DNA of 64,000 bases from an uncultured bacterium (GCA_963716985.1 OY970323.1:1312001-1376000); one strand, 5' to 3'; positions 1 through 20,067 are shown, counted from the stretch's first letter. A program made the numbers and translations. Notes: generated by a model from the letters alone, not told the origin.

Positions 1-1
1 T

Positions 2-151
2 GTGCCAACAGCGCCCCATTTAATCTCCGGGTTTCTCATTTTCTTTCCAAAAGACAGAGCAGAATCGATCGATATGACCCACCAGGAATTTGTAAAATTT
101 GTCATTTCCTGCGGCATCGTGGTGCGCGAGAAATCCGCTAAAAAGAAATAG
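2..151 (+). CDS. DUF502-family protein, 3' end (partial)
   Basis: Frame 2 reads VPTAPHLISGFLIFFPKDRAESIDMTHQEFVKFVISCGIV, which resembles the DUF502 C-terminal VPT-P-P-SGF...ISxG motif. Stop TAG at 149-151. Confidence 0.7.
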   Translation: MPTAPHLISGFLIFFPKDRAESIDMTHQEFVKFVISCGIVVREKSAKKK

Positions 152-215
152 TCTTTTCCGAAAAGGCGCAAGCACTATGAAAAAACAGAAAAGAACAAAG
201 TTCTAGGAACTCCCC

Positions 216-635
216 ATGGACACAGCTGCTGCGAAAGCAATCTTTTTCGATGTAAAAAATGCCACGGATAAGTTGAAAAAGATCTACCAGACGGCAACTT
301 CCCATTTTGAAAAAAAAGAGCCCCTGCTTATTCTCGTTTCCGATGCTGCCGCAGCATTATTCATCGACGAATGGCTCTGGAAGATCGAAGACGCGAGTTT
401 TTTGCCCCATGCAGTATCGGACACACCCTCAAAAGAAATCATTTTAATCTCTACCACCCAAGAGGCCCATGAGCGTCCTTTTCTTTTTAACTTAGGCGCC
501 GATCTCCCAATGCGTACGGACAAGATAAAAATTTTTTATGAATTCGATGATAGCTCTTCCCCTTCAAAAAAAGAACTTTCCAAAAAAAAATTCACTTACT
601 ATCGGAACCTTGGGTTTTTGATTGAATCTCGTTAG
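216..635 (+). CDS. holC: DNA polymerase III subunit chi
   Basis: 139 aa with IDEWLW...SFLPH motif typical of HolC. Confidence 0.8.
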   Translation: MDTAAAKAIFFDVKNATDKLKKIYQTATSHFEKKEPLLILVSDAAAALFIDEWLWKIEDASFLPHAVSDTPSKEIILISTTQEAHERPFLFNLGADLPMRTDKIKIFYEFDDSSSPSKKELSKKKFTYYRNLGFLIESR

Positions 636-703
636 AAACCCTTGCCTCTATTGGCTCTTTGTACTATCATTTTTTGCATGTTTAAATAGGGAGTCTTTCG
701 CAA

Positions 704-883
704 ATGACACGCATGTCTAAACAGGGAAAAATCAGAAATATCAGTCCCCACAAAAGAAGAAAAAGAATCGTCAATAAAACGGGACCTAAAAAAGATCAAT
801 TAGCTTTAGGATTTAAAGAAAGAGTCAATGCCCTTTCTTTAGATGCCGCATCTCCTTTAACCTTCATCCCCAAAATTTCATAG
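704..883 (+). CDS. small basic protein (chlamydial CT421.1-like), 59 aa, absent from the ORF track
   Basis: Reads MTRMSKQGKIRNISPHKRRKRIVNK...; GGGAG Shine-Dalgarno upstream; lies directly before the PVC small basic protein gene as in other chlamydiae. Confidence 0.6.
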   Translation: MTRMSKQGKIRNISPHKRRKRIVNKTGPKKDQLALGFKERVNALSLDAASPLTFIPKIS

Positions 884-889
884 GATTTT

Positions 890-1045
890 ATGTCGCGCCA
901 TCAAAGCTACGGAAAAGCCAGTAAAAACGTCAAAAAACGCAATGTTTTGAAAAGATTCGAAAGGGTCGAGATTCTTCAAAAGCTTGGAAAATGGGATGGC
1001 AAAAAGGTCACGGCCCTTCCTAAAACACTAACGACTGCGAAATAG
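890..1045 (+). CDS. PVC-superphylum signature small basic protein, 51 aa, absent from the ORF track
   Basis: Reads MSRHQSYGKASKNVKKRNVLKRFERVEILQKLGKWDGKKVTALPKTLTTAK, containing the RNVLKRxER...W...LPK signature. Confidence 0.9.
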   Translation: MSRHQSYGKASKNVKKRNVLKRFERVEILQKLGKWDGKKVTALPKTLTTAK

Positions 1046-1050
1046 TTTTT

Positions 1051-1503
1051 GTGAAGGTCTCGATCTTCAATAGACAAAAAGCTCTTCCGGTAGATAAAAG
1101 AGTCGTTAAGAAAATTGTTGCTTTTTTTCTTTTGCAGGAGAAAATCTCTTGTGATGAAGTGGGCATTTATTTTGTCGAAAAAGAAGAAATATGCCCTCTT
1201 CACGAGAAGTTTTTTGAAGACCCCTCCCCCACTGATTGCATCTCCTTTCCGATTGCCCCTCCGAAAAGCCGTTCAACGGAGTTTTGTTTTTTAGGAGAGA
1301 TTTTTATCTGCAGTGAAGTTGCGCTTGAATACGCCTCTTGCCATCGTTTGGATCCTCTGGAAGAGCAGGCTCTTTATCTGATTCATGGACTTTTGCACCT
1401 GATCGGGTATGACGATCAATCCTTAACCGAGCGAAGATGCATGCGAAAAAAGGAAAAAAACTATATGAAGGTAGTAAGAGAAATTTTGAAGAAGAAAAAA
1501 TGA
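1051..1503 (+). CDS. ybeY: rRNA maturation endoribonuclease YbeY
   Basis: PTDCISF, GEIFIC and HGLLHLIGYDD motifs. Confidence 0.93.
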   Translation: MKVSIFNRQKALPVDKRVVKKIVAFFLLQEKISCDEVGIYFVEKEEICPLHEKFFEDPSPTDCISFPIAPPKSRSTEFCFLGEIFICSEVALEYASCHRLDPLEEQALYLIHGLLHLIGYDDQSLTERRCMRKKEKNYMKVVREILKKKK

Positions 1504-2849
1504 TGCATGAATCTTTGACCCCCTATTTGCTACTTATTTTCTTAAGCGGAGCGAGTCTCCTTACGACCTTTAGCACCGCTCTTTTGCGTCTTGGCAAATT
1601 CCGATGTACAACTCTTTTAGACGAAAAAAAATCTCATCTCTTCTTCTTTTTTTTCCTTTTCGAACGTCTTTTCCCTGCAAACGAGTGGGAAAATCTTTAC
1701 TTCATCATCAGCTTCACAAAATATATCCTGCACATACTCTATGCCATATCTGCTTTTCTTTTTTTGGACCACTATCTGCCCCTCTCTACTTCCCATTTTT
1801 TGCCAGAACAAAACTGGGCGCATATTGCCATCTATCTCGTAGGAATCGTCGCCCTTTCTATCCTACTTGACTTCCTCATGCGCTTGGCAGCGACCCTTCG
1901 GCCCAAAAATCTTTTTGAACTCTCCGCTCCATTATCTTCCATTTATCTCTTCTTTTTTTTCCCGCTCACCGGACTTCTTTTAAAAGCCACTGCCTATTTT
2001 TTTCAAAAACTCCATATTGAAGAAACACCGGGCCAATATTTTCTTGCCAAAGACCGCCTCGCAGAGGTGTTGCAAGATTCCGGCCTTTCAAAGCTCTTGG
2101 ACACTCAAGATCAAAAAATGATCCATTCCTTTTTCTCCTTTCGAGAAAAAGTGGCCAGAGAAATTATGGTGCCCCGTGTCGATCTTTTCTGCCTGCCGTC
2201 GACCGCAACGATCCGTGAAGCAACAAAGCTTTTTGTAGAAGAAGATTTTAGCCGCATCCCTGTCTATAAAGATGATCTGGACAATATCATTGGCGTGCTC
2301 CTATTCAAAGACGTCCTTAAAATTTATAAGAAAAACGAAGATAAAAAAGACACGCAAGACCTGCTCAATTTAACGCTGGAAAGCATCGCCAAGCCCGTGA
2401 TCTACGCCCCTGAAAATAAAAAAATTTCCCATCTGTTCCAAGAGCTGCGAACAAAGCAGATCCATTTGGCCATTATCGTCAATGAATATGGGGGAACGGA
2501 AGGAATTGTGACTATCGAGGACATTCTGGAAGAGATCGTCGGCGACATCGAAGATGAGTTTGATACCGAAGCGGATCGTTCCTATTGGAAACTTCCCGAT
2601 GGAAGCTGGGTTGTCGATGCCAAAATGAGCATCGTGGACATCGAAAGCAAGCTCGATGTAAAAATTCCTCATCATCCTGAATATGAGACCATTGGAGGAT
2701 TCGTCTTCCATCGGGCCAGCGCCATTCCGTCAAAGGGGTGGAAACTGATTCATGACAACTTCCATCTAGAAGTTTTGGCTTCGAACGAACGTTTTATTGA
2801 AAAAATCCGCTTGATCCCGATTGTTTCTGAACTCCTTGAAAAAGAATGA
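1500..2849 (+). CDS. CNNM/CBS/CorC-HlyC hemolysin-family (TlyC-like) membrane protein
   Basis: N-terminal TM helices; AREIMVPR, FSRIPVY, GIVTIEDILEEIVG and YETIGGFV motifs. Start probably at 1500 or 1503, overlapping the ybeY stop. Confidence 0.88.
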   Translation: MMHESLTPYLLLIFLSGASLLTTFSTALLRLGKFRCTTLLDEKKSHLFFFFFLFERLFPANEWENLYFIISFTKYILHILYAISAFLFLDHYLPLSTSHFLPEQNWAHIAIYLVGIVALSILLDFLMRLAATLRPKNLFELSAPLSSIYLFFFFPLTGLLLKATAYFFQKLHIEETPGQYFLAKDRLAEVLQDSGLSKLLDTQDQKMIHSFFSFREKVAREIMVPRVDLFCLPSTATIREATKLFVEEDFSRIPVYKDDLDNIIGVLLFKDVLKIYKKNEDKKDTQDLLNLTLESIAKPVIYAPENKKISHLFQELRTKQIHLAIIVNEYGGTEGIVTIEDILEEIVGDIEDEFDTEADRSYWKLPDGSWVVDAKMSIVDIESKLDVKIPHHPEYETIGGFVFHRASAIPSKGWKLIHDNFHLEVLASNERFIEKIRLIPIVSELLEKE

Positions 2850-2897
2850 CCTCTCTGGCAAAATTTCGAACAATTAACGGAAGGGAGAATAGATCCG

Positions 2898-4799
2898 ATG
2901 CGTCGTTCCATTTGTTTTTGCGAGCCTAGCTTTGCCATCGCCGGCGAAAGCAATACCTGGAAGTTTGTCTATACCCCTTCGATCGACCTTCCCAAAGGCA
3001 CATCTTTGACCTTCGACCTGCTCTCCAGCAAGAAACCGGGAGAGTGGCAGATCCCGGAGTCGAACCCTAAAGCAAAAACAAACCTGATTTGGGCTACGAT
3101 AGCAGCAGGCAAGCCCATCTATGCAAAAATCCATCAAGGCTCTGCTTTTGAATCTCCCAAATTTGAGTTTTCCCTGCCGTCGGCTCTTAAATCAGGAGAG
3201 CATTTCTCAATTTTTATGGGCAGCCCCGCGTCCGGTGCGAAAACCGGCAATTTTTGCCAAACTAACATTCAAAGACGACGCCCTTTCAAGTTATTGATCG
3301 ACACAAAGGTCAAAGGCCAAATCGTCGAGCCGGAAATCTTCCATATGGACGTGAAGGGAAACCTGCTCAAAACTCTTCGCATCATCGTTCCCTCTTTTGT
3401 TGCCAGAAATCGACGATTTGACATTGTGATCCGCTTTGAAGACGTGTTTGGAAATCTTACGTCCAATGCTCCCAAAGAAACCTTGATTGAACTTACTTAT
3501 GAGAATCTTCGGGAAAACCTTTATTGGAAGCTCTTCATCCCGGAAACCGGATTCATTACTTTGCCAAATCTGTACTTCAACGAACCCGGCATCTACCGTA
3601 TCCAACTCAAAAATCTTTCCACAAAAGAATTATTCTTTTCCCCTCCAATCAAATGTTTCCCCGAGTCCAGCGATTCTCTATTTTGGGGACTTCTTCATGG
3701 AGAGTCCGAAAAATTTGACGCCGGTGAAAATATCGAAAGCTTCTTAAGGCAATGCCGCGACGAAAAAGCGCTGCAATTTATCAGCACATCTCCTTTTGAT
3801 AGCGAGCAAGAGACGTCCAACGATAAATGGAAGAACATCTCCAACCAGATTGCCGAGATCAACGAAGAGGAGCGTTTCATCACTTTCCTGGGATTCCAGT
3901 GGGAAGGAACTCCTAGAGAAGAGGGTATTCGTGAGTTCATTTATACAAAAGATAGCAAACCCATTCTTCGCAAAAAGGACATCAAGCACAATTCCCTAAA
4001 AAAGATCTACAAGATCTACCAGCCCAAAGACTTAATTTCCATCCCCTGTTTTACGATGAGCGCGGATTTCTTGTTTGATTTTAAGGAATTCAATCCGGAA
4101 TTTGAGAGAGTTGCCGAAATCTACAACTGCTGGGGATGCTCTGAATGCACGGAAAAAGAGGGCAATCCCTTCCCCATTCGGAAATCCGTAAAAAAGACAG
4201 AAGAAAATGAAGCGGGAGCTCTTCGAAAAGCGCTGAATAATAATTGCCGTTTTGGCTTTGTTGCCGGAGGTCTTGATGACCGGGGGATTTACAGCTCCTT
4301 TTATGGCTCGGAACATGTGCAATATTCTCCTGGGCTTACCGCCATCATCGCAACGACCCAAACCAGAGATGTGCTTTTAGATGCCCTTTACCATCGTCGC
4401 TGCTACGCAACGACAGGAGAACGCATAGTCATTGATCTCCAGGTCGCGCAAAGCCCGATGGGGTCAGAGCTTGATACGCAAAAAAGGCCCGGGCTTGCTT
4501 ATAGCCGCCATCTCACCGGATATGCCATCGGAACAGATTACATCCAAAAAATCGAAATCATTCGAAACGGCAAGGTCTATGCGACCTTCACCCCGGAAGG
4601 AAATAGCTACGAGTTTGCTATCGACGATACAGATCCGATCGCATCGATCACCCTAGACGGAGGCAGTGAAAAACCGCCCTTTGTCTATTATTATCTTCGC
4701 GTGCTACAAAAAAATGGCCATATGGCCTGGAGCTCTCCTGTCTGGATCGACCATTTCGAAGAAAAAAATGGAAAAAAGATGAAGAAAAAGGGCTTGTAG
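2898..4799 (+). CDS. DUF3604 domain (PHP-like) protein, conserved in chlamydiae
   Basis: FWGLLHGES, RRCYATTGERI and YYYLRVLQKNGHMAWSSPVW motifs; syntenic after the CNNM gene. Confidence 0.8.
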   Translation: MRRSICFCEPSFAIAGESNTWKFVYTPSIDLPKGTSLTFDLLSSKKPGEWQIPESNPKAKTNLIWATIAAGKPIYAKIHQGSAFESPKFEFSLPSALKSGEHFSIFMGSPASGAKTGNFCQTNIQRRRPFKLLIDTKVKGQIVEPEIFHMDVKGNLLKTLRIIVPSFVARNRRFDIVIRFEDVFGNLTSNAPKETLIELTYENLRENLYWKLFIPETGFITLPNLYFNEPGIYRIQLKNLSTKELFFSPPIKCFPESSDSLFWGLLHGESEKFDAGENIESFLRQCRDEKALQFISTSPFDSEQETSNDKWKNISNQIAEINEEERFITFLGFQWEGTPREEGIREFIYTKDSKPILRKKDIKHNSLKKIYKIYQPKDLISIPCFTMSADFLFDFKEFNPEFERVAEIYNCWGCSECTEKEGNPFPIRKSVKKTEENEAGALRKALNNNCRFGFVAGGLDDRGIYSSFYGSEHVQYSPGLTAIIATTQTRDVLLDALYHRRCYATTGERIVIDLQVAQSPMGSELDTQKRPGLAYSRHLTGYAIGTDYIQKIEIIRNGKVYATFTPEGNSYEFAIDDTDPIASITLDGGSEKPPFVYYYLRVLQKNGHMAWSSPVWIDHFEEKNGKKMKKKGL

Positions 4800-5068
4800 C
4801 AGCTTGACAAAATATAGAGGGAATTGCAAAACCAATACAACTTTTTGTTCATAAGTCCCTCCAAAAAGTGTGCGCTGCTCCCCAAAAATTGGGCACTTGA
4901 ATAAGCCATAATTTCTTCCTCTCTCCATTTTCTGCTGCGCCATCCACGTTTTTTTGCCTTTTTCGAGCTACTCGATTTTTTGAATCTTTTTGGTCACAAG
5001 AATGTTTTTTTTCTAGATAAAACAATTCCCGATCTTTTAAATTGGATGCCTATTTTTGGAGAATGGAC

Positions 5069-6970
5069 ATGTATTGGTTTTTCCGCCTCTTACTGACTGG
5101 ACTTACAATGTTCAACGTCTGTTTTGCTGAAGAAGAGGAGGATGAATATCCCTGGATTGATAGCTACACAATTTCTTATGGTGGGATCAGTTTTGAATGC
5201 ACTAAAGGATGTGGCGATCCATTCTATAATCCGGGAATGGAAACGATCGATTCTATGTTTTATAACTGTCTTGAAAAAACAGTGGGTCATCCATCCCCTG
5301 CCTTATGGTGGTTATTCCCAAATGGCATGTCGGAAAAGCTGTGGGAACGAGAGGATATCTGTAAATATTCTGTCATGAATTGGCAGAGAGGAAAAAATAA
5401 AGCTAAAATTCAAGGATATGACACCTTCTTGCTAGATTCATATTCCCGTTTGCCAGTTGTTATCGAAAGATTTTACAAAGACTTGGGATATAATCACATT
5501 CAATCTCTTTCTGTTTACAATGAAAAAATTAAAGAAAAAAAATCCATTCTGGAAACTCTTGTGTCTTTGAAAAAGGATGGCTGTTTAAGCATTGACTATG
5601 ATCCTGATGGAAAAATGCTTGGGAATCATTACGCAGGCGGATATTCAATTGATATCGATGAGGCAATCGAGAGTGCTCAAGAAAAACTCAAGGAAGTAGA
5701 GAATGATATAGAGAGCGAACATGAGGAGTTCCATGATTCGATTGAAATTGCTGAAGAGACATTCAGAGAAATTGACGAACAATTCAAAAAAATCTTCATC
5801 CGGTGTCTTAATAACCACCAGCCCGAGGGGATCGCATTTAATAGTGCCTTAGAAAATTTTCTGCTGGGCGATATAGATGGAGGCGTCGCACAAATTCGCG
5901 AGCTCATTCAAACGGCAGAAGAGTGCGAATTAGGAGATGATCTCATCGCAAAGCTCTATTTTCTCAAAGGAGAAATACAAGCCGAAGGTTCTCTTTACGC
6001 AGATGCAATTGCAGATCTCACCACAGCAATCCAAAAAATGCCTTCCATGAAAGAAGCCTATCTTGAACGCGCTGCTAGCTATTTTGAACTTGGGAAGTTT
6101 GATCAGTCGATCCAAGATTATCTTTCATCGGGTATTCGCCCGACCTATGACACAAATCCTACAGATTGGGGTCTTGGCATTAGTGCAGGATTATTCAAAG
6201 GTGCCGGACAATCGGTGGCTGATTTTATCCCTTCTTCTCTTGTCACCCTACGTGGACTTGGCAATGGATTATGGACTTTTGTTAAAAGCCCAGTAGGGGC
6301 TTCTCGCGAATTGATTGAGTCTACGAAAAAACTTATCGAATTATTGCAGTCCAATTCAGCTATTGAAACATTGCAAGAAATCGTCCCTGAATTGAAAGAA
6401 CTCATTCAAAACAACAACAAGCTCAGCGATTTTAGAAAGGGTGAGTTGGTAGGTCTTGCGATCGGTAAATATGGAGTTGACATTTTTCTCGCCAAATATG
6501 GAACAACCGCGATTAAAGCATATCGTGAACTCAAACAGGCCAATCAGCTTATGACATTAGAAGCATTGGCAACTCCTCAAAAAACACAAACAATTCTTTC
6601 CGAAGCAAATAAACGATGGGCTCATCGAGAACAAGTCTTAAAAAACGCCACGCTCAATATCCAGTGGGATAAACTGGGGAAACATATGGAAGGCCATTAG
6701 AATTATGAAAAATTAGTGAATGATCATCGAAACCCAAGCATTTTTACTCATCCGAATCCTGAGAAGTTAATTAAAGAATATGCCGGAACTGGCATCAAAG
6801 ATATTAATCTTATACCTGGTACTCCAGCATATAGAGAGCTTGTGAATTTTAAAGAGTTTATTGGATATGCTGTTGACCCAAATACTGGGGAAAAAACTGC
6901 AACAACATGGGGCAAGATTCACTATGCAAAAGATGGAGTTCATATTGTTCCAAGCTTGCCAAGGAAATGA
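5069..6970 (+). pseudogene. secreted TPR-containing polymorphic toxin with C-terminal Ntox50-like RNase domain, interrupted by in-frame TAG at 6698-6700
   Basis: Signal-peptide-like N-terminus; TPRs (AKLYFLKGEI..AIADLTTAI..EAYLERAASYFELG). ORFs 5042-6700 and 6716-6970 are in the same frame. The joined sequence GKHMEGH*NY...KEYAGTG...RELVNFKEFIGY...TTWGKIHYAKDGVHIVP matches the Ntox50 pattern. Confidence 0.8.
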
Positions 6971-7303
6971 CAGTTCTGCTTCCTCCAATATATGCAGCAT
7001 TATTCATTGAGATTGTTTAAGAAAAAAGATTGAGATATTAGGGATTTATAATTATGCTCTCGCCTTTAAATACTTTACTATTGGATATTCAAGGTGCATT
7101 AATCAATGCCGTCGCACCTTCCTTGAGGGCTGTTACTGGGGTGTGACAAACAATCAGAAGACGTCCAACAATGGCCCAAGAGAGCCGTAGTACTACCCCC
7201 CTATTTTTTGTCCAACTTTACTACACAAACCTTTCAATAAAATCTTGACTTCACAACAACAAAACCGTCACAATGTTTAGTCATTTTTCCCGATAGGATA
7301 AAA

Positions 7304-7669
7304 ATGAAGAAAGAACGGCCTGGTGAATTGCACCAGAAAATCAAGCGGCTACGAACATCCAGAGATGCGCTGAAGCATCACAATTATGAAAAAACCCAGC
7401 AGAACAAAAAACTTCGCGACAGGAATGTAGAGATTGCTGAAAGTCGCGATCATTGGAAAGATCGTAATAAAGAGCTTGACCAGCAAAAGGAAGGCCTGGA
7501 GCAACAAATACAAGTTGCGCAGGAGAGATTACTGGAGGCTCAAGAGAAGATACAGACTGCAAAGAAAGAGATAGAGCGCGAGCGAATACGAGCTGATGAG
7601 GAACGCAGGCGCGCAGATCAACTCCAAACTGAAATTGAAGCAGCTCGAAAAAAAAAACAGGGGTCTTGA
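7304..7669 (+). CDS. IS orfA, coiled-coil protein
   Basis: 121 aa charged heptad-rich protein inside the IS; SD-like AGGA upstream; ends just after an A10 run. Confidence 0.7.
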   Translation: MKKERPGELHQKIKRLRTSRDALKHHNYEKTQQNKKLRDRNVEIAESRDHWKDRNKELDQQKEGLEQQIQVAQERLLEAQEKIQTAKKEIERERIRADEERRRADQLQTEIEAARKKKQGS

Positions 7670-9020
7670 AAATTTGATTCCAAAGATGGGAGAGAAAGCC
7701 CCGCGTGGTTGGTATCCCATCTTGATGATCATCATGTGCATTAGGCTAGTGCTCCAAGCTACTATTTCATTTCGCGCAGCTCCTAAGGCGATTCATATTG
7801 CATTTTCTCAATTCGATGCTGTCAAAGATCAACCGATTCCAACATACAAAAGCATCAGCAGATGGCTAACGCAGATAGGTCTCTATAAGTTGAATTGCCC
7901 GAAAGAACAAGCAAATGACTGGGCACTAGTCATTGACAATTCAGTCCAAATTGGTACTCAAAAATGTCTTGTAATTTTAGGAATGCGTCTGAGTAAGTTT
8001 CAGAAGGGAAAAGCACTAACTCTCGAGGACATGGAAGTACTGATTATAGAGCTCCATGATCAGTCCAACGCGAATATTGTCTGCAGGGCATTGGAGAATG
8101 CACAGAAAAAAATTGGAAAGGCTGCTATGGTATGCGCTGATGATGGTTCAGATCTCCGAGGCGGAATTGAACTGTTTTGTCAGAAGCATGGTGCTGGCCG
8201 CGTTTTTGACACTATTCATAAAATTGGCACTTTTTTAAAAAAGATTTTCGAGGATGATTCGGAATGGCAAGCTTTTTCAACAGCTGCGGCAGCTGCCAAG
8301 AATAAGATGCAGCAAACACAGGCAGCTCATCTCATGCCACCCAACCAAAGGACGAAGTCTCGATTCCTCAATATCGAGATTCTTGCGCGATGGGGAATTG
8401 ACATTATGGTTGCCATAGATACGCCGAACCATCCTGACAAGGATCTGCTCGAACAATACTGTGGCTGGATTCGTCAATATACAGGGCTCATTGAAAGATT
8501 GAAACAATTTGACCTCATCAGTCGGAAAACTAGACAGTATATCCGCGAGAATGGAGTGAGTTTTAGCACAGGAGAGCAGATAGATGCATTTTTGGAAGAG
8601 GAAATGAAGTCCTTAAATTTTAATGCAGAAGCATGCGAATACGCTGGAGCGCTGATAGATTTCTTCTACGAACAGTCGAAAGTCGTCCCTTTTGGACAAA
8701 CCTGGCTTGGTTCAAGCGAAATCATAGAATCTCTATTTGGAAAATTGAAAAGTCTCGAGAATGACCAAAGCAAGGGAGGCTTCACGCCGCTTATTCTGGG
8801 AGTAGCTGCGTGCGTCGGTAAAGTGGATATTGCTTTGGTGAAGGCAGCCATGACACATATAAAGATAAGTGATGTCGACACGTGGACAAGAGAACAGGTC
8901 GGATCGACGCTACTTTCCAGAAGAAGGAAAGCTTTGGCGTTCTGGAGAAAAAAGAATTTTCAAAAAAATATTGTACACGAATCGGCTGGAGCCGTCAGGA
9001 GCGAAGCGATTGGTTTTTAG
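7596..9020 (+). CDS. IS orfB, putative DDE transposase (true start uncertain)
   Basis: Candidate catalytic motifs WALVIDNSVQIG, ADDGSDL, DTIHK and SSEIIESLFGKLK; fills the element between the IRs. Confidence 0.8.
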   Translation: MRNAGAQINSKLKLKQLEKKNRGLENLIPKMGEKAPRGWYPILMIIMCIRLVLQATISFRAAPKAIHIAFSQFDAVKDQPIPTYKSISRWLTQIGLYKLNCPKEQANDWALVIDNSVQIGTQKCLVILGMRLSKFQKGKALTLEDMEVLIIELHDQSNANIVCRALENAQKKIGKAAMVCADDGSDLRGGIELFCQKHGAGRVFDTIHKIGTFLKKIFEDDSEWQAFSTAAAAAKNKMQQTQAAHLMPPNQRTKSRFLNIEILARWGIDIMVAIDTPNHPDKDLLEQYCGWIRQYTGLIERLKQFDLISRKTRQYIRENGVSFSTGEQIDAFLEEEMKSLNFNAEACEYAGALIDFFYEQSKVVPFGQTWLGSSEIIESLFGKLKSLENDQSKGGFTPLILGVAACVGKVDIALVKAAMTHIKISDVDTWTREQVGSTLLSRRRKALAFWRKKNFQKNIVHESAGAVRSEAIGF

Positions 9021-9717
9021 TGGTCAACTATCAATTTGTCACACCCCAGGCTGTTACTGCTGATATTGACTTAAAGAACAAAAAGTTAATTTTGTTTTTT
9101 TTCTACGATGGAATCATTACTGATAAATTATTTGACTTAGCAAGTGTTGCGGCTACTGAAGCCGGCGTTTCGCTGCCCGAATATTTTACTGATGATCACT
9201 ATGTTCAATTGGATTATCCCAAAGAAATTCCCATTCAAGGCAAACTTGCTTATTTACGATACGAACCTCATTTACCGAAATTTAAGAAAGAAAACCGATC
9301 TTATCTTCTAAAACAATCGAGGCCATCCGTTGTTCTTCTGCTTGATATGCAAGAAGCTTTGTTGGGAAAAGTAACCCCCTCTTTACGTCGCGCAGCAGGA
9401 GAAGTCGACATCGAAAATAAACGATTGATCTTTTATTTTGTATACGATGGAAAAATCTCTGAAACAGATTATCGATTGGCTACTGCTGCAATTCAAGAGT
9501 CCGGCTCTTCTTTTCCCGGCTATATAATAGAATCTCACATCGATAGAATCGACTATCCAAATGAAAGATCCACATACAAATGTTATGGAGCTTATTTAAG
9601 ACAAGAAGATTGAGGAAGCTCAGGCGAGCCCGGCTTTGCCAGGAGATGTAGGCGCACCTCATGTTTTCTGGAGAAAAATTGAGCGGCTGTCGGGCTGTGT
9701 TCTCTACTGATGGAGAG

Positions 9718-10332
9718 TTAAATTTTCCATGTGCATTGGATCTTTTCGCTTAAGAGCGGATAGAATCGATAAGAAAAGTATGCAAGGAAAAGGGCGTTGA
9801 TCATCTGAGTAGCCATGCACTCTATTTCCGGACGGCCGAAAGAAGCGAAGACAGGCTTTTTCCCTTTCTGAAGAAAGTCTAGTCGCTTCCGGTAAAACTC
9901 CAAGAGAGGAGAAAACATCTCTTCGTTTCCCTGTTTCAACAGAGCATCTCTTCCCATAAAGGAATAAGAAAAGGGAGCATACGCCCAAAAGGAGTTGATC
10001 CAATATCTCCAAAAGATATTGCTTCTTTGATATGCCTTTTTTCCACAGGCTCGATAAAAGCTATTGATTTCTTTAGGATAAAGGGTCTGGGCTTCATGGA
10101 CCATCTCATAAAGAAGGGTATTTCGAGGGAAGCTATGCGCAAGAAAGAAAACGCGATTGGCAAGCCTCGTCTCTTCTTTGCCGCTCGCACGGGAAAAAAA
10201 TTCTCGAATACTCGAGAAGACCCAGAAGACCGCATGCCAAATTTTTTCGATTCCCCTAGAAAAAAAATACATGTTGGAGCTTTTTGCAATGAGCAGATTT
10301 TGAAGATGCAGTGGATTGATCATTGGGGCCAT
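9718..10332 (-). CDS. hypothetical protein
   Basis: 204-aa ORF in tandem with 10343-10867; no recognisable motif. Confidence 0.45.
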   Translation of the reverse strand: MAPMINPLHLQNLLIAKSSNMYFFSRGIEKIWHAVFWVFSSIREFFSRASGKEETRLANRVFFLAHSFPRNTLLYEMVHEAQTLYPKEINSFYRACGKKAYQRSNIFWRYWINSFWAYAPFSYSFMGRDALLKQGNEEMFSPLLEFYRKRLDFLQKGKKPVFASFGRPEIECMATQMINALFLAYFSYRFYPLLSEKIQCTWKI

Positions 10333-10342
10333 CGAATGTGCA

Positions 10343-10867
10343 TCACTTCTGTGTTTGCGATGTGTTTGAGAAGAGGGCCGATATTGCTACCAAACAGCCC
10401 AAAGAGCTTCCAACGACCTTATAGATGAGACTTTTGGCTCTCTCTGAATCGCATCTTGGGAGCTGTGGCATGGGGCCAATGCGTAGATTGTCATTTTCGG
10501 CAACCATCCAGCGCGCCTCCCTCCCCTTTTGGATCAGTCGATTATAGGCCAGTGCATACACGTTGTAGAGAAGAGAGCTGGGGGCAAAACAAACAATGTC
10601 TAACACCCCGAGAATCGGGAAGGTGATCAGATATGTAAAATTTTCCCAAATTCTATTACCGAGGCGATTTTCGAGAAAGGAGCGCGCAGCGTTGGGTGCA
10701 ATCATGACAGAAAAAGTCGAACCGTACCGATATCCCCCAGCCGGCGAGTCGCCCCCGCAAACACTCTTTACAATGCGCCCAAGAAGCAAACATTTACGGA
10801 CACAAAGGTCAACACCTGACCAAAGAACTTCTCCATAAAGGCAAGGTAAAACTGCCGGAGTACCCAT
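10343..10867 (-). CDS. hypothetical protein with hydrophobic segments
   Basis: 174-aa ORF with ATG start; no recognisable motif. Confidence 0.45.
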   Translation of the reverse strand: MGTPAVLPCLYGEVLWSGVDLCVRKCLLLGRIVKSVCGGDSPAGGYRYGSTFSVMIAPNAARSFLENRLGNRIWENFTYLITFPILGVLDIVCFAPSSLLYNVYALAYNRLIQKGREARWMVAENDNLRIGPMPQLPRCDSERAKSLIYKVVGSSLGCLVAISALFSNTSQTQK

Positions 10868-11078
10868 AAACTTTTCCTGACTTTCAAAGAGTTAAGTTTA
10901 GCCGAAGCGGCAAAACAAAACCAGGAATTGCTGCATGACAAACGGGAGTTTTTTTTGAACGTTAAAAATATCGACGCATTTTGTAATTATTTATATCTCA
11001 AGTTTTTAAAAAATTCATAATCTCAGATATTTTATTTTAATTCGAAAAAACTTAAAATGCAAATAAAGAGAGAATTTT

Positions 11079-11516
11079 ATGAAAAAACCCAAATCCTCAA
11101 AGCATAAGCTGAAAGAAGATAAACTGAAAAAAGGCCTCAAAAGATTGATTGATCATTGGGAAAAGTTTCTGGCAGCAAAAAAAGGGCGAAAGAATAAAGA
11201 ATATCTCTTGCAAATCGCAAGAGATATTAAAGAACTGGAAAAGGAGAGCTCTCTTTCTTTAGAGATGCCCGATCTCTATCCTGCCAGTTATTTGATCCAC
11301 CATTTTCTGATCAGTCCTTACGGATCGGCCTACATGACAAACCGCTCGCTGCTCGATGCCGCATTGGATTTTAGCGAGGCCGGAGGCGAAGAAACAAGCC
11401 TCCTTTCTGAAAAAGCTAAAGAATCCGACCTTTCCCATCTTCTTGAAGAGCCCAAGGAGGATCTTCCTATGATCTTTTGGTCGCTCTATGAAATCATCAA
11501 AAAAGAGAAAACCTAA
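11079..11516 (+). CDS. hypothetical protein (Lys-rich N-terminus, acidic C-terminus)
   Basis: 145-aa ORF after an AT-rich promoter-like region and GAGAG SD; converges on the next gene with overlapping stops. Confidence 0.65.
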
Positions 11517-14263
11517 AGCGCAAGATCGGCAAAAATCCGCTTCGTCTCTTCCTCGACTGAAAGCTTAAATCCCAATTTTTCGCAAATCTTCTGCATCTCC
11601 TTGTTCTCAGGGAACATAGAAGCTACGATATGCTGCACCTTTTCGTCTTTGGCCACCTGGATGAGCAGTTGCAACAGGCGAAATCCGATTCCCTTTTTCT
11701 GCCACTTGTCTTTGACCAAAATGGCAAAGGTAGCCTCCTCGGTTAAGGGAATTTTGCTCAATCGGCCAATGGCCAATATCTCCTTTTTGCCATCCTTGTG
11801 TTTATATTCGAAAACAAGGGCTATTTCCCGATCATAATCCGTAAAACAGATGCGGATGAGCCTCTCTTTTGCAATAAGCTGATCATATTTCATCTCTTTC
11901 AAGTATCTTTGGAAAAGGGTTCTCTCTGAAAGCTCTTTGAAGAAATCAATCATGAAAGGTTCATCTTCAGGCCGGACAGGACGTATGACCACCGGCGTCT
12001 TGTCCTTCAAAGCCCATTCTTGCACATATTGAACCGGATAGGGCCGAATCGCCAATTGCGGCAGTTTTCCGATTTTTGCCGCATCATGCAAAACAATACG
12101 TGCATCCAGTGCGATGATCTGTTCGGGAGATGCCCATATCGGATTGATATCGCACTCTTCGATCTCCGGGTATTCTGCAATCAGGTTGCTAAAACGAACA
12201 AGAACCTTTTCCAACAGGGCAAGATCGACCGATTTTCTTCCTCGCACTCCTTTCAGAGCATGGTAGATTTTGGTCCTTTCCATCATTCTTTTTGCTAAGG
12301 TAGAGTTCAAAGGAGGCAGAGCAAGAGAGCTGTCCTTAAACACCTCTACGAGCTGCCCGCCCATCCCGAAAAGAAGGACAGGGCCAAACTCCGGATCCAC
12401 CGAGCTTCCTAAAATCAACTCATAACCATTTGAGAGATTGACCATCGGCTGAACAGTAACGCCTTGAAAATCGCTTTCTTTGGCAAGTTTTTTCACCGAT
12501 GCATAGATTTCCCCGTAGGCAGTATACACGGCTTCTTTGTTGTTCAAATGCAGCTTTACCCCCCCAACATCAGTCTTGTGGGTAATGGTCTCTGAAAAAA
12601 GCTTTAGAACTACGGGGAAGCCCATTTTTTCCGCAAGTTTCACAGCTTCCTCTGCATTTTTGGCAATTTCCGTGGGGACAATGGGGATGCCGCAAGCTTC
12701 CAAAACTTTTTTTGCTTCATATTCGGAGAGAAGAACTCTTTTTTCCCCTCTTGCCTTAAGAAAAATCTCCCGGATCATTTTCCCCCCTTGAGCTACCTTG
12801 ATCCGTTCATTTTCTTCTTCATAAAGTGTGGGAGTTTGATAAAGAGCTTTTAAGTTGTCGCTATGCGACCACATATAGCCAAACGTCTTGCAAGCAGCGT
12901 CGGGAAATTCATAACAAGGGATATTATTATCGGTGAGCAGCCGCGTCCCTTGAGCCACATTTGTCCCTCCCATCCAGCTGGCTAAAATGGGCTTATCTTT
13001 TGAACGCCCATAAGGTTTTAGCTTTTCAGCGGTTAAGGTAGGATTGGTCATGTACTGAGGGGTCAAAATGACAAGAACGCCATCCGTTGCGGCATCATTG
13101 ATAGCCACGTCCAATGCTTTGGCATAAAGCTCAGGACTCGCATCTCCTAATATATCGATGGGATTATTGTGACTCCACTCTTTGGGTAAAAAACCGCTTA
13201 GCGTTTCTATTACCTTCGGATCAAAAGTCGTTAGCTTACCACCGCTTTGAATGAGAGCATCCGTTGCAATCACGCCGGGACCACCCGCATTCGTAATGAC
13301 GCTTAAATGAGGTCCTTTTGGCCTTGGTTGTTTGGAAAGAATCTCGGCCATGTTAAAAAGATCTGAAATCATCTCCACGCGAAGCACTCCGACCCGTCTG
13401 AGCGCAGCATTTAACACTTCATTGCTTCCGGCAAGCGACCCTGTATGGGAAACCGCGGCTTTCGCCGACTCTTCGGTCACCCCTGCTTTAATCAAAATAA
13501 TCGGCTTGGCAAGTGCGACTTCCCTTGCAGCAGACAAGAATGATCTCGTATCCCCTACGCTTTCCATGTAGATCAGAATACTATGCGTATTGGGATCGCT
13601 TCCCAAATAGGTAATGAGATCGCCCCAATCCACATCCATCATCGTACCGATCGAGAGAAAAGAACTAAAACCCACTTTTTCTCGCAAGCTCCAATCCAAC
13701 ACGGCAGTGCAAAGAGCCCCGGATTGGCTGATAAAGGCAATATTCCCCTTGAGTGCCATGTCGGCAGCAAAGGTTGCATTCAGGCCCGTCATGGGGTTCA
13801 TCACCCCAAGACAGTTAGGGCCGATAATGCGCATTTTCCCTTTTTTGGCATGCTTCATGATTTGGTGTTCAAGTTCGATGCCGGGAGCCCCGAGTTCTTT
13901 GAATCCGGCAGAAATAATAATTGCGGACGGCACTTGAGCTTTTACGCACTCTTCAATAATCAACGGAACTGCTTGAGCCGGGGTCACAATGACTGCTAAA
14001 TCAATCTTCTCGGGAATATCTCCGATGCTTTTGTAAGCCGGTATGCCAAGCACGTTGTTTCTCTTGGGATTGATCGGATAGATCGTTCCCCCGAAAGGAG
14101 ATCGCATGAGATTCCAAAGAATTGTCCTTCCCACACTATTCTCTCTCTCGGTAGCTCCTATGACCGCTACGTTCTTTGGGGCAAAGAGAGAGTCCAGCTG
14201 TCTTTGTTTTCTATACAAAATGTTCAAAGTAGAATCAAAAGCATATTCCTTCATAATACCCAT
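11513..14263 (-). CDS. bifunctional ADP-forming acetate-CoA ligase family / GNAT N-acetyltransferase
   Basis: CoA-binding [38 protein letters not shown]-grasp [20 protein letters not shown]-terminal GNAT WQKKGIG. Confidence 0.92.
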
Positions 14264-14332
14264 CACGTTTCTTAAAACCCTATATATAGAGATTAATAGA
14301 ACGAGATGCAACCCCAAATTTAAAAGAAAGGA

Positions 14333-14974
14333 TTATCTTTGAATTTTTTTTCCCAAAATCTCTTCGATTCTTTCTTTGGATATAGGCCCTTCTCGAAAAA
14401 GACGCGGAGGGTCATCGGCCAAACTCAAGACGGTCGATGCCTTTTTGCAAAACACCTCTCCTCCATCGATCAAAGCCGCTATCTTTCCCATAAAAGCTCG
14501 ACTGACAGCTTCTGCGCGGCACGCCGGCGGCTGGCCGGAGATATTGGCAGATGTGCCAAGAATTGCTCCTCCCATTTTTTCAATCAAAAAAAGCAGCCCT
14601 GCGTGAAAAGGCATGCGCACACCAACCGTTTCATTCCTTGAGATCTTGGAAGATATGCAAGAAGACTTTTTTAAAACAATGGTCAAAGGACCCGGCCAAA
14701 AAATCTGAATCAACTCATAGAAAGAAGGCGGTATTTCAACGGCGATCTCCTTCACGACAAGGTCGGAAGAGACATGGATAGTCATGGGATGGTTCGGATC
14801 CCTGTTTTTAAGTGCAAAAAGCTTCTCTATTGCATGTTCATTTTGCCAATCGACCCCGAGTCCATAAACGGTCTCCGTCGGAAAAGCGATCACCTCGCCC
14901 TTGAGCAAAAGGGACTTGATTTCTTGAAAATCGACCTCCTGAAGACCTTGGGCTGAAAAAATACGTGTCAACAT
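14333..14974 (-). CDS. tsaC: L-threonylcarbamoyladenylate synthase (TsaC/Sua5 family)
   Basis: AFPTETVYGLG, KNR, FWPGPLT and TSANISG motifs. Confidence 0.92.
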   Translation of the reverse strand: MLTRIFSAQGLQEVDFQEIKSLLLKGEVIAFPTETVYGLGVDWQNEHAIEKLFALKNRDPNHPMTIHVSSDLVVKEIAVEIPPSFYELIQIFWPGPLTIVLKKSSCISSKISRNETVGVRMPFHAGLLFLIEKMGGAILGTSANISGQPPACRAEAVSRAFMGKIAALIDGGEVFCKKASTVLSLADDPPRLFREGPISKERIEEILGKKIQR

Positions 14975-15077
14975 GGATGGCGTCCTTGAAGAAGCTGCGA
15001 CATTTTACCCTGAATATTCCTTTGTTGTCCAAAAGAAGAGAAAACTTTATAAAACAAACTTAAAAGGAAGTGTATTT

Positions 15078-15380
15078 ATGAAACCCAATCCCATATTTTT
15101 CATTTTCTATGGCGGCATTGTATTTTTGGATGGCGCTATGGCCTATTTTGCGGGAAGATCGGGACTCATCGAAATCCTCGCAGGCCTTGTCCTTTTCGCC
15201 GCTCTCCCATGGATAATAAAGGAACAGATAGCCGCAGAAGGGCTGGGGCTGGCTATTTCCATCGGTTTGCTGATCTATTATAGCTATTATTTTGCCGCCA
15301 CGACCTATTTTTTTTCCGCAGCGCTTGGGCTTGCGAGTTTCTTTATGAGCCTCTATCTCGTCTTGAAAATCTTTCGCTAA
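15078..15380 (+). CDS. small membrane protein, TMEM14-like
   Basis: About 100 aa with four hydrophobic helices, YGGIVFLDGAMAY..GRS motif; AAGGAAG SD before ATG 15078. Confidence 0.5.
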   Translation: MKPNPIFFIFYGGIVFLDGAMAYFAGRSGLIEILAGLVLFAALPWIIKEQIAAEGLGLAISIGLLIYYSYYFAATTYFFSAALGLASFFMSLYLVLKIFR

Positions 15381-15528
15381 ATAGCTTATATGTAAATCAT
15401 TACATTGTTCCCTTTTCGTTTCTCTCGGGACTTTCATTCTTGAAAAAGGGCCTTGCCGGACGGACAAAAAAAAATCGGACAAATCGTTGACTTGCCCGAT
15501 GAGATCATGCAGATAGAAAAAGGGCCGC

Positions 15529-15666
15529 TTATCTTGAAGCGACTCTTTTGCCTCTTCGAGATTTAGCTTTTCGCTTTACTCTTTTGCAGCTGCGGCAAGC
15601 TTTACGCGCTTTTCTTCGCTTAACAGTACGTTTTTTTGCCGATTTTCTTCCTTTTCTCTTTAACAT
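15529..15666 (-). CDS. 45-aa protamine-like Arg/Lys-rich peptide with CxxC, absent from the ORF track
   Basis: Reads MLKRKGRKSAKKRTVKRRKARKACRSCKRVKRKAKSRRGKRVASR*; strong SD (AAAGGAGGAAGTCT-ATG); 26 of 45 residues are K or R and none is acidic. Confidence 0.75.
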   Translation of the reverse strand: MLKRKGRKSAKKRTVKRRKARKACRSCKRVKRKAKSRRGKRVASR

Positions 15667-16051
15667 AGACTTCCTCCTTTAATTTTTTAGAGCTATGTTT
15701 ATAAAAACATCAAAATTTAACAATTTTTCTTTCTTAAACTTAATATATTAAATTTATTATTTATTTATCAACTGTAAAATAAAAACTTACAAGCTTTAAA
15801 ACAATTCCAAATGGCGACAAACGCCTCCAGAGACACCCTTGGGCAAGGTTTTTTAAGATAAATGAATTTTAAAAAAAATTATTTTTTACATAAAAAATAA
15901 AAAAGAATCGAATAAATTTTCATTAAAGATGGTCGAGTTTTTTTAAATATTTTAAATTTTTTAAAAAGTTAAAAAAAACCGATAGTTTCGGTTTGTTAGA
16001 ACCGGAAGACTTTTTTAGAGATAGGCCAAGAACCTGATCCTTACCCACAAG

Positions 16052-19000: not shown

Positions 19001-19274
19001 AGCCATCCTGAATGAACAAGACAGTCTCTTCCGAGAAGCGGGCCTTTTCCAACACCCGATGCCAGTGGGGCTGTTGAAGCGCCTGATGCGTGATTTTGGG
19101 ATTACTAAAAAAGCGATACGTCGCTTTGAGATCTGCCCAATCTTCAAAGCGTCCCGCTAATGACTTTTCAGGATCTTCTGCGCAGCCTATTGCAATATCA
19201 ACAGCTCTCTTCTGCAAACGAGGGTCACCTACATCGATCTTGGCAAATTGGTCGTACATCCATTGTTCTTTCAT
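16052..19274 (-). CDS. IS50/Tn5-like transposase, two exons (19274-18408 and 16492-16052), 435 aa when spliced
   Basis: GDPRLQKR, ATYRFFSN, IQDGSEL and VGDRANDIY in exon 1. Junction LEWLLVT|NLPV. YRRRWLIEDYHKAVKTG (YREK) and LARMGGFIGRKSDGEPGWQTIWKG in exon 2. Confidence 0.9.
16493..18407 (-). mobile_element. group II intron (about 1915 nt), sense to the transposase
   Basis: 5' end GTGCGCC at 18407; domain V GAGCCGGATGCGGGAAACCTGCAAGTCCTGGTTC; domain VI hairpin ending CTACTCACC at 16493; these boundaries restore the host frame. Confidence 0.92.
16580..17929 (-). CDS. ltrA: group II intron reverse transcriptase/maturase, no endonuclease domain
   Basis: AVGIDG, IPKADGGKRPLAI, SFGYRPGKSCH, DIRKYFNSI, GCPQGSVTSPILSNIYLH, RFCDD, FLGF, IKGWINYH; AAGGTGG SD before ATG 17929. 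Confidence 0.93.
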   Translation of the reverse strand: MSVHSKDRYTVSMKLDRIGDLSAGNHDLVFNNLGHLINEEMLMRAFAQLDGTKAVGIDGITKEAYGKNLEENLRMLAAKVHRAQYAPQPSKIVEIPKADGGKRPLAISCIEDKLVQMAAGEILNKIYEPLFLPSSFGYRPGKSCHDAITALHQAVYECKDGALLEIDIRKYFNSIPHMEMEAILQKKINDPKFLRLIHILLQAETITNDGVVQKNLVGCPQGSVTSPILSNIYLHEVVDSWIESIRTYLKGKIFPIRFCDDMVFVFECSEDAERFYRAFTQRLQKYGLAVHEDKSHLHSSGSKRIAEMAAKKQKLPVFKFLGFTFFWEKAQKGNFWRLKVRSRGDRKHSKLQGLSKFLKENKAMKTLIMFQQILPIIKGWINYHAVTDNSRAVNGFIFQCERAIFKWINRKGGRKKMSWEKFEKVLEKVGFPMKWKIKCIIGTPKVIKT

Positions 19275-19466
19275 GATACCTGCTCCTTCTTGAAAAACGG
19301 AGCACATGATACTAAATTTTAGACTTGTGGGTAAGGATCAGGCCAAGAACCGCATACATCACCGGAAATGCTTGCCAGCGCCGCAAATCCATCCTTTTCG
19401 CTCAGGGGCGGCTCACAGGCCAAACCTTAAGACGAAAAGAGACAGGGAAATACTTCCGGGAACAAT

Positions 19467-19614
19467 CAATGCTGTCAACTTAAGGATTCGAGAGCTGCGC
19501 TCTCGAGCTCTCCCCAAAGGGCATGCCCTTTGGAAACCCAAAGCTTAGGTTTCCAAAGGACTGCGTCCTTTGGCGGGGGTTTAAGGGGCAGGGCCCCTTA
19601 TGTTGACAGCATTG
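19467..19614. mobile_element. 148-bp MITE (family C) with IS4-like ends
   Basis: TIRs CAATGCTGTCAACTTAAGG / CCTTATGTTGACAGCATTG (1 mismatch); 10-bp TSD CGGGAACAAT at 19457-19466 and 19615-19624. Confidence 0.85.
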
Positions 19615-19792
19615 CGGGAACAATCAGGATATGATGTGAAAAACAGGGCGCAAGACTCTCTTTTTTCCCATGGACGGAGGAGCATCCCGCTTATTCTCTT
19701 TTTTAGGAAAACTCTCTTCCCTTTATAGCAGGATCTCGCCACCGGATAAGGTCGGTCAACGAAAAAGGAGCCTGTTTTTTTGCATATGGGAT

Positions 19793-19833
19793 AAAAAAAA
19801 AGTGCCTTGAAATCGAACTTCCAAAGCACTTTT
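19793..19833 (-). terminator. putative intrinsic terminator after the last DUF378 gene
   Basis: Imperfect hairpin AAAAGTGCTTTGGAA..TTTCAAGGCACTTTT followed by a U-tract on the minus strand. Confidence 0.6.
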
Positions 19834-19854
19834 ATTGGCGATCATTGAAAAAGC

Positions 19855-20067
19855 TTATTTTCTGGCTTTGATCCAGCGGGCACCTTTGCTTTTCCAAACA
19901 ACAGCGGTATAAATCGCTGCCGCTCCGAAGATAAAATAAGCCAATCTAACTACCCATTCTCTTCCAAAAATGTAGTAAATTAGATTAAATTCAAATATCC
20001 CCCAAAGACCCCAACAAATGCCGCCAATAATTAGGGCGGACATTACCAATTGATCCATTTTTGTCAT
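19855..20067 (-). CDS. DUF378 domain small membrane protein
   Basis: LIIGGICWGLWGIFEFNLIYYIFG..RLAYFIFGAAAIY; GAGGT SD. Confidence 0.85.
   Translation of the reverse strand: MTKMDQLVMSALIIGGICWGLWGIFEFNLIYYIFGREWVVRLAYFIFGAAAIYTAVVWKSKGARWIKARK

Follow-up and report, generated by a model that had tools for sequence, protein, structure and literature searches.

We analyzed a 64,000-nucleotide stretch of DNA (GCA_963716985.1 OY970323.1:1312001-1376000, hereafter the window) from a soil/peat chlamydia whose genome is a single contig of 2.07 Mb, and in particular a two-gene locus at its positions 5069..9613. The first gene encodes a toxin, in which a long carrier region leads into a C-terminal Ntox50 ribonuclease (RNase) tip, and the second encodes an immunity protein composed of two MafI2-type domains. 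Both genes are disrupted—the toxin gene by an in-frame TAG, the immunity gene by an insertion sequence (IS)—and the locus is very probably a polymorphic toxin-immunity module of two genes, of a type common among environmental Chlamydiota, that was inactivated recently. All features of the locus described below lie on the plus strand, apart from the strandless target-site duplications of the IS.

Under translation table 11, the toxin appears as two open reading frames (ORFs) in the same frame, 5042..6700 (552 aa) and 6716..6970 (84 aa), split by a TAG at 6698-6700 (codon 544) directly after the residues KHMEGH. The preliminary description of this locus had reported a frame of 633 codons, which is indeed present when translation from the ATG at 5069 is carried through the stop as X (5069..6970), but which is broken by the TAG, a lesion that the description hinted at with the words "joined" and "repaired". 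Up to the premature stop, the carrier frame comprises 543 codons (5069..6697, with alternative starts at TTG 5042 and ATG 5063). The residual 84-codon ORF (6716..6970) holds the C-terminal three quarters of the tip, covering positions 21-92 only of the Pfam Ntox50 profile.

Running the joined C-terminus against the Ntox50 profile bore out the earlier assignment of the tip, with PF15542 matching aa 533-628 of the read-through frame (6665..6952) across the stop and over essentially its full length (positions 3-92 of the 92-position profile; 80.7 bits where the cut-off is 22.2, E = 1.4e-22). Searching the complete genome for Ntox50 yielded one match only, the window copy, at 84.9 bits. When we searched the PDB with a profile of 40 chlamydial tips, it recovered the C-terminal domain of YxiD (9v8i_B, E = 4.1e-19) and the MafB2 toxin (8hhj_B, E = 3.6e-13). 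The catalytic K538-H539 (GKH), IHY and HIVP motifs are all present in the window tip, which keeps every invariant column of the 40-tip alignment, and the base histidine of MafB2 aligns in HMMER with the histidine of the invariant GKH, that is, with H539 in the window. Park et al. 2023 describe MafB2-CT of Neisseria meningitidis as an RNase toxic in E. coli, with His335 proposed as general base and His402 and His409 also required (PMC9970974), while the report on YxiD of Bacillus subtilis describes a metal-dependent tRNase with an HxVP motif, toxic in E. coli as well (PMC12700104). Homology places the tip of the chlamydial family among RNases of the MafB2-CT/YxiD-CT kind, its predicted activity, and the window tip is a member of Ntox50 by descent, probably surviving as a pseudogene.

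The position of the TAG bears directly on this activity, as it sits between the catalytic base histidine (H539, five codons earlier) and the IHY and HIVP histidines downstream. Because the stop parts the base histidine from the two later ones, neither toxin ORF would be able to encode an active enzyme, the residual ORF keeping IHY and HIVP while lacking the N-terminal catalytic histidine. All 21 aligned homologues have a sense codon at this position (21/21), and our scan of the window's own genome flags the same lesion as "1 TAG" inside the Ntox50 match. We saw no other stop and no other defect in the 633-codon frame; since the rest of the frame and the invariant tip residues are intact, the lesion should be either recent or an uncorrected base error. 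Reassignment of TAG and programmed read-through were considered and rejected, given that the homologues use ordinary sense codons here and that the genome scan flags a single TAG.

Past the toxin stop (6970) by 84 bp, an ATG at 7054 opens the frame MLSPLNTLLLDIQGALINAV..., which closes after 30 codons and forms the beginning of the immunity gene. The preliminary description had given this gene as 212 aa made of two copies of one domain of roughly 100 aa; both copies exist and the codons do sum to 212, but the gene is split by a 1912-bp IS that cuts it at 7136/7137. The 5' piece (7054..7136) contains the first 27 codons and two bases of domain 1 and fits that domain's N-terminal consensus, and the 3' piece (9058..9613) contains the rest of domain 1, a linker of ~20 aa, the complete domain 2 (about 9311..9610) and the stop. 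Once the IS is removed, 83 + 556 nt give 639 nt, or 212 codons plus a stop.

The IS itself (7137..9048) is bounded by terminal inverted repeats of 14 bp that match perfectly, and a target-site duplication of 9 bp is read from the sequence on either side of it (left copy 7128..7136, right copy 9049..9057). It carries a 121-aa ORF predicted to form a coiled coil (7304..7669), which overlaps a downstream ORF of 474 aa for a putative transposase (7596..9020) with no Pfam or NCBIfam match. We found 296 homologues of this putative transposase at E <= 1e-5, nearly all annotated as hypothetical and located on contigs of ~1.9 kb, one of them labelled Rhabdochlamydiaceae, and the 1.9-kb element may represent an unclassified IS family. 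Elsewhere in the genome there are six more full-length copies that are 100% identical, one copy in two pieces and one 72% relative, for a family total of nine copies of which seven, including the window's, are identical and full-length; given these multiple identical copies, the IS is therefore active. We also compared the insertion site with low-depth contigs from four metagenome runs. In three other metagenomes, contigs end exactly at 7136/7137 and at 9048, and a 147-nt contig of a slightly divergent strain from a peat metagenome runs from 7127 straight into 9049, 11 letters being ambiguous; this is thin but consistent support for an uninterrupted immunity allele occurring in nature.

Each immunity unit is a domain of ~97 aa, and unit 2 is complete, with its five invariant residues kept. 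A hidden Markov model (HMM) of the domain matches the 3' piece twice, at 63.2 bits (positions 27-99) and 67.7 bits (positions 7-99), unit 1 being matched only from position 27 because its N-terminal positions are encoded by the piece at 7054..7136. The longest real ORF over the 3' piece is a hybrid of 243 aa (8882..9613) that begins inside the IS and retains the whole second MafI2 domain, and which, if transcribed, could supply one whole MafI2 unit. The preliminary description had proposed the duplicated domain as cognate immunity, and its family membership agrees with this: a profile of 24 domains matches residues 9-101 of 108 in the MafB2 immunity protein (8hhj_A, E = 4.2e-8), precomputed PF26541 (Pfam 38.1) is found on 97 of 99 homologues from a large protein collection, and Atlas returns MafI2 clusters (score 0.91, 207/256 features), MafI2 being its name for PF26541. 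Pfam and NCBIfam scans of the window immunity protein itself were empty because the PF26541 model was outside the scanned set. MafI2 has been known as a partner of Ntox50 tips since the work on structure 8HHJ, and the report on that structure gives a Kd of about 40 nM for the binding of Neisseria MafB2-CT to MafI2 (PMC9970974).

In front of the tip, the carrier is built in a fixed order, from a signal-peptide-like N-terminus through an N-domain and about three tetratricopeptide repeats (TPRs) to a helical, Gly-rich pre-toxin domain. We predicted the structure of the 543-aa frame with AlphaFold (47 sequences; mean pLDDT, the predicted local distance difference test, 81.8). The hydrophobic N-terminus (aa 1-20, 5069..5128; MYWFFRLLLTGLTMFNVCFA) has the highest hydropathy in the protein and is modelled as a helix at aa 2-19, and a hydrophobic N-terminus like it occurs in 129/153 full-length homologues, compared with 1/153 for an internal control window; we regard it as a strong likeness to a signal peptide, and only a likeness. 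The N-domain (aa 33-250, 5165..5818), recognizable from the model and from conserved columns, is of alpha/beta type, two of its helices being very long, and its Cys44 and Cys246 are nearly invariant across the homologue alignment. The TPRs follow at aa 252-357 (5822..6139) and are clear in the model, where they superpose on TPR chain 8fwd_0 (VIA-align Z 16.4, root-mean-square deviation 1.9, 100 aligned residues), though the Pfam TPR_1 match in the window frame is sub-threshold (E = 4.8e-5, 23.4 bits, below the 27.8 cut-off); homologues exceed this cut-off. The pre-toxin domain (aa 366-526, 6164..6646), delimited from alignments and models and shared with a paralogous locus in the same genome, opens with the Gly-rich helix GLGISAGLFKGAG (aa 368-380), includes a low-confidence loop, and ends at a conserved junction, ANQLMTLEALA in the window, beyond which tips differ.

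The signal-peptide-like segment, the repeats and the Gly/Ala-rich linker of the preliminary description, the last corresponding to GLGISAGLFKGAG, were all recovered in this way, and, as it had stated, RHS, CDI (TpsA), LXG and MuF domains are missing from the Pfam matches at E <= 0.01. MafB-N (PF06255, DUF1020) likewise gave no match in the 633-aa frame at E <= 0.01. Foldseek and VIA-align searches with the 543-aa model and with a 229-aa model (TPRs plus pre-toxin domain) returned TPR proteins alone, and no solved fold matched the N-domain or the pre-toxin domain, both of which were queried only inside those two larger models. From the pre-toxin part, Atlas returned polymorphic toxin leads only, to EndoU and MafB, with scores of 0.83-0.90 (MafB weak, at 0.83-0.86). 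With the signature domains of known classes absent from these Pfam matches and no description of the carrier found in the literature covered, the suggestion of an undescribed delivery class stands.

We then examined how the carrier, its tips and the genes behind them are distributed. A first search returned 51 proteins homologous to the carrier frame (34-100% identity), of which all the named ones are chlamydial or come from metagenome-assembled genomes (MAGs). Precomputed PF15542 is found on 43 of them, the remaining eight being two truncated proteins, one of them the window's own product, and six whose C-termini are of other kinds. Scanning one genome per species yielded 73 carrier loci, all in Chlamydiota-type MAGs, a few of which are labelled Verrucomicrobia or "archaeon". 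By tblastn, 51/73 of these loci have an Ntox50 tip; the other 22 comprise one Ntox50 tip cut by a contig end, three loci that stop short of the tip, 12 with a second tip type (carrying FPRPKG...RVMPG...EAHIP), four with a third, and one each with a fourth and a fifth.

The downstream genes follow the tips closely. With the HMM, we detected the MafI2 domain in 47/73 loci, namely in 47/51 Ntox50 loci vs. 0/22 of the others, so that the linkage to the toxin tip anticipated in the preliminary description is found well beyond the window. In the 43 of these 47 loci where tblastn finds the domain too, the MafI2 match begins somewhere from 53 bp before the end of the tip match to 151 bp past it. Four Ntox50 loci are without MafI2, two of which have no downstream room (L056 and L088) and two of which carry another gene (L049 and L082, considered below). 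The second tip is followed by a family of its own, of ~120 aa, in 10/12 loci (a blastp cluster of 14 ORFs from 11 loci), and the third by proteins of 190-425 aa in 3/4 loci that are alike by eye; other tips have other neighbours.

A wider search for tip diversity used a TPR plus pre-toxin profile against 1.84 billion representatives, giving 1244 proteins at E <= 1e-30, some of which are long multi-TPR proteins. Of 188 proteins examined from this and the first search, the pre-toxin domain is complete in 177, and in 165 the tip measures 60 aa or more; these 165 tips fall into 10 clusters with 114, 28, 11, 3, 2, 2, 2, 1, 1 and 1 members. The largest is Ntox50, followed by the second type (28) and the third (11), then by two further types (3 and 2), by a two-member cluster identified as DUF6883 (E = 8.3e-24) and another two-member cluster besides; one of the three singletons has a weak colicin/pyocin DNase match. 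The tips diverge right after the conserved ..ANxLxTLEALA.. junction motif, and orphan cassettes of tip plus immunity gene occur at L078, at L081 and at a second locus of the window's own genome. A conserved N-terminal region, diverse tips, tip-specific downstream genes and orphan cassettes together mark the carrier family, as judged from sequence, as a family of polymorphic toxins. The preliminary description had named two computable outcomes that would count against it, a single invariant C-terminus among the homologues and a downstream gene unlinked to toxin tips, and neither was observed.

The same data bear on whether the locus could be an ordinary cytoplasmic type II toxin-antitoxin pair. 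Its two-gene toxin/antidote layout would suit such a pair, as would the BECR/RNase A-like fold of the tip, which according to Zhang et al. 2012 is used by RelE-type toxins too (PMC3482391). But the toxin here follows a 540-aa carrier whose N-terminus resembles a signal peptide, the antidote lies downstream rather than upstream, and tips are exchangeable on one carrier, which leaves a type II pair barely conceivable and the polymorphic toxin module as our preferred reading.

The immunity side of the module varies in the number and arrangement of its units. In about a dozen loci, the ~97-aa MafI2 domain alone makes up a complete gene. Four single-domain MafI2 genes stand in tandem behind one Ntox50 toxin in L060:6268-7538. 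In three further loci (L033:6161-7009, L055:6234-7016 and L068:6711-7580), the immunity ORF consists of a MafI2 unit, an Ntox50 remnant and a second MafI2 unit in a single frame, the remnant being ~45 aa from the tip C-terminus with its IH..HIxP motifs retained. These three ORFs are fossils of former immunity/orphan-tip/immunity arrays in which a piece of the toxin now serves as a fixed linker, and they show a route by which tandem immunity fusions like the window's originate.

As to distribution, 182 of 400 Chlamydiota genomes, sampled evenly, contain a match to the carrier profile, often in several copies; they span 114 of 212 genera, and the count among the high-quality sampled genomes is 153 of 334. 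Sixteen of the 182 have a best E-value weaker than 1e-10 and may reflect generic TPR proteins, so a cautious figure would be ~166/400. One chlamydial family is nearly devoid of the carrier, with 1/29 genomes matched, and that one weakly. Decay is seen outside the window as well, with stops or frame breaks in seven other loci, located in the pre-toxin domain in L029, L040 and L051 and in the tip in L048, L084, L065 and L090.

Related loci are also present in the window's own genome, such as a second polymorphic toxin locus ~0.77 Mb from the window (L020, G000:C1:540000-552000, positions 1954..6783). Its main protein (670 aa) begins with a signal-like N-terminus, includes TPRs and the pre-toxin domain, and bears a different, helical tip. 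Next to it are two orphan cassettes, each with a pre-toxin fragment, a tip of the "FPRPQG..RVMPG..EAHIP" kind and a gene of 122-123 aa belonging to the downstream family of the second tip type. In the pre-toxin stretch common to them, DNA identity reaches 96% for the main gene against orphan 1 and 94% for one orphan against the other, and such near-identical stretches are the substrates that would be expected for tip switching by recombination. From the stop of the main gene (3966) to the first orphan (4327), we found no immunity candidate of at least 90 aa. Elsewhere in the same genome, four to five MafI2 domains with broken frames (L016/L021, G000:C1:493728-495117; 47-60% identity to those of the window) cluster directly behind a HigB/HigA-like addiction pair, with no Ntox50 nearby; they are decayed orphan immunity genes.

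Within the window, a 633-aa protein (2898..4799) directly precedes the toxin gene. Its DUF3604 match is confined to aa 476-520 (E = 7.1e-10), and other loci do not have this protein next to their toxin. Scans for Rfam families (1..16000) and tRNAs (1..20000) were empty, and promoter-like sites occur at chance level (11 found vs. 10.9 expected).

Several observations weigh against our reading of the locus as a dead copy of a module for antagonism between bacteria, some of them touching its inactivation and others its function. As to inactivation, the TAG is known from one assembly, the contigs of all four metagenome runs leave 6642-6755 uncovered, and its source may be a base error. The hybrid ORF 8882..9613 keeps an entire MafI2 domain, so that the loss of immunity may not be total; the evidence for the empty site is a single 147-nt contig at depth 3.4, with 32 letters on its short side; and some MAG records may be erroneous, inflating the count of decayed copies elsewhere. 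The uncovered TAG site and the MafI2 domain kept by the hybrid ORF would fit a toxin gene that is intact in the living organism, the TAG being an error or read through and the remaining MafI2 domain giving immunity, and so would a 633-codon frame that is otherwise clean, the retention of every invariant tip residue and the existence of single MafI2 domains as complete genes. This is nevertheless improbable in our view. The frame has just one stop, lying within the catalytic motif and recurring in the own-genome scan, the partner gene has been broken independently by the IS, which fits relaxed selection, seven other loci show similar stops or frame breaks, and evidence of TAG reassignment was not seen. 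With its catalytic domain discontinuous and its immunity gene cut by a young IS, the module in the window would be out of selection, and it is most likely dead or dying.

As to function, none of the five proteins flanking the locus in the window was found in any of the 73 carrier loci, and in these loci no recurrent neighbour or secretion partner stands beside the genes, the toxin and immunity families aside; with its neighbours unconserved, the module therefore either moves or is reshuffled, without an obvious dedicated secretion partner. Two Ntox50 loci with ample downstream DNA have a different gene in place of MafI2, L049 and L082, which share a gene of 225-233 aa (MLKLFD...; L049:6236-6937 and L082:6175-6852) that is a candidate alternative immunity family for Ntox50. 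Delivery is a putative role of the carrier, for which we found neither linked partner genes nor a solved-fold match of the N-domain or pre-toxin domain, and, since an RNase that folds before Sec export needs an inhibitor anyway, an immunity gene alone is no proof of a bacterial target.

For intact copies of the module, we infer Sec-dependent export, a role in delivery or translocation for the N-domain, TPRs and Gly-rich domain, and a bacterial target. The precursor would be exported across the inner membrane by way of its Sec-type signal peptide, and the carrier would present the tip to a neighbouring bacterium or deliver it there. In the target cytoplasm, the tip would cleave RNA, with the GKH histidine acting as base and the IHY and HxVP histidines as acid, while in kin cells a cytoplasmic MafI2-type protein would bind the RNA-binding face of the tip 1:1 and shield them.

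The same domains could instead belong to a secreted RNase that is directed at the host or used for scavenging, with MafI2 merely protecting the producer from toxin that has folded ahead of export, as in barnase-barstar; the RNase would then be released into the inclusion or the host cell and attack eukaryotic RNA. Chlamydiae are obligately intracellular, Zhang et al. 2012 argue that intracellular bacteria mostly direct their toxins at hosts (PMC3482391), and no contact-dependent delivery apparatus lies near the carrier genes. The immunity proteins mostly do without a hydrophobic N-terminus (16/94 reach the threshold, vs. 129/153 carrier proteins), which suits a cytoplasmic inhibitor in either model. 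We still find a host-directed or scavenging role unlikely in view of the ten tip classes, with a matched downstream gene for each common class, and of the orphan cassettes, whose recombination arms are nearly identical. Immunity genes that stand alone or are multiplied (as in the tandem of four at L060) and degenerate immunity-only clusters are further hallmarks of interbacterial toxins and would be unexpected for host effectors, and host-directed toxins lack immunity genes according to the same survey (PMC3482391). Antagonism between bacteria is consequently the function we prefer for the intact family, and a precedent in obligate intracellular bacteria, albeit of a different phylum, is provided by the Rickettsia toxin/antidote modules reported in PMC9111745.

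Going further, and tentatively, environmental chlamydiae may fight bacteria with a phylum-specific, self-contained carrier that needs no dedicated secretion partner, in which the pre-toxin domain of ~160 aa acts as a new membrane-translocation module and decay tracks the loss of competitors; we hold this combination to be possible, at somewhat less than an even chance. The parts involved would be the signal peptide, the Cys-bearing N-domain, the TPRs and the pre-toxin domain read as a glycine zipper. If true, the carrier would bring nuclease tips into other bacteria of the same host cell, whether rival chlamydiae or co-resident symbionts, and the recurrent decay of toxin and immunity genes, in the window and the seven other loci, would follow lineages becoming sole residents of their hosts.

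Zhang et al. 2012 already list Ntox50 in chlamydiae, with T2SS (type II secretion system; MafBN), T6SS (type VI), T7SS (type VII) and MuF delivery and with "-" in their immunity column, and according to them TPRs appear only on Sec-exported toxins of Amoebophilus (PMC3482391). In the literature covered, from which subscription journals were excluded, we found nothing on the carrier and nothing on chlamydial polymorphic toxins beyond that survey. As the tip and immunity families were known before, what is new is the carrier, together with the commonness of immunity-linked polymorphic toxins in an obligate intracellular phylum: some 40-45% of the Chlamydiota genomes sampled contain this one carrier family, which has at least 10 tips and immunity genes to match. 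The interpretation first offered for this locus is supported for the gene family, the window copy being an ordinary pseudogenised example that matters mainly for how such modules die. Competition among intracellular bacteria, such as superinfection exclusion or the rivalry of symbionts in one protist, becomes directly testable in cultivable chlamydiae, and the carrier is a compact (~530 aa) candidate scaffold for toxin delivery. MafI2 immunity, in turn, emerges as a repeatable unit of ~97 aa that is found singly, as genes in tandem, or in fusions, some of which enclose a fossil piece of toxin.

Among the closest known systems is the Maf system of Neisseria, which was reportedly described by Jamet et al. 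2015. As in the chlamydial module, the MafB2-CT/MafI2 pair of maf genomic island 2 (PDB 8HHJ; PMC9970974) involves a signal-peptide-bearing polymorphic toxin with an Ntox50 tip and GKH, IHY and HxVP histidines, a MafI2-family gene directly downstream, variable tips and orphan cassettes. Unlike Neisseria MafB, the carrier described here is without a MafB-N match and has instead a Cys-bearing N-domain, three TPRs and a Gly-rich helical pre-toxin domain; the module also differs from Maf in having no MafA-like gene nearby, in its tandem-fused immunity protein, in its obligate intracellular phylum and, in the window, in being a broken copy. The closest solved relative of the tip is that of YxiD-YxxD from B. 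subtilis 6633 (PDB 9V8I), which shares the HxVP motif but has an LXG N-terminus and type VII export, and its YxxD immunity protein has an Sm-like fold with another recognition mode (PMC12700104). The CdiA-CT/CdiI and Rhs-CT/RhsI systems, as covered in PMC3482391, share the underlying logic—a delivery region that is conserved, then a junction motif and a C-terminal nuclease that can be swapped, with cognate immunity encoded downstream—along with orphan cassettes that recombine through a shared pre-toxin region. In contrast to them, the chlamydial carrier shows no TPS domain, filamentous haemagglutinin or RHS repeats, PAAR or VENN in Pfam, and achieves the same arrangement in a carrier of ~530 aa.

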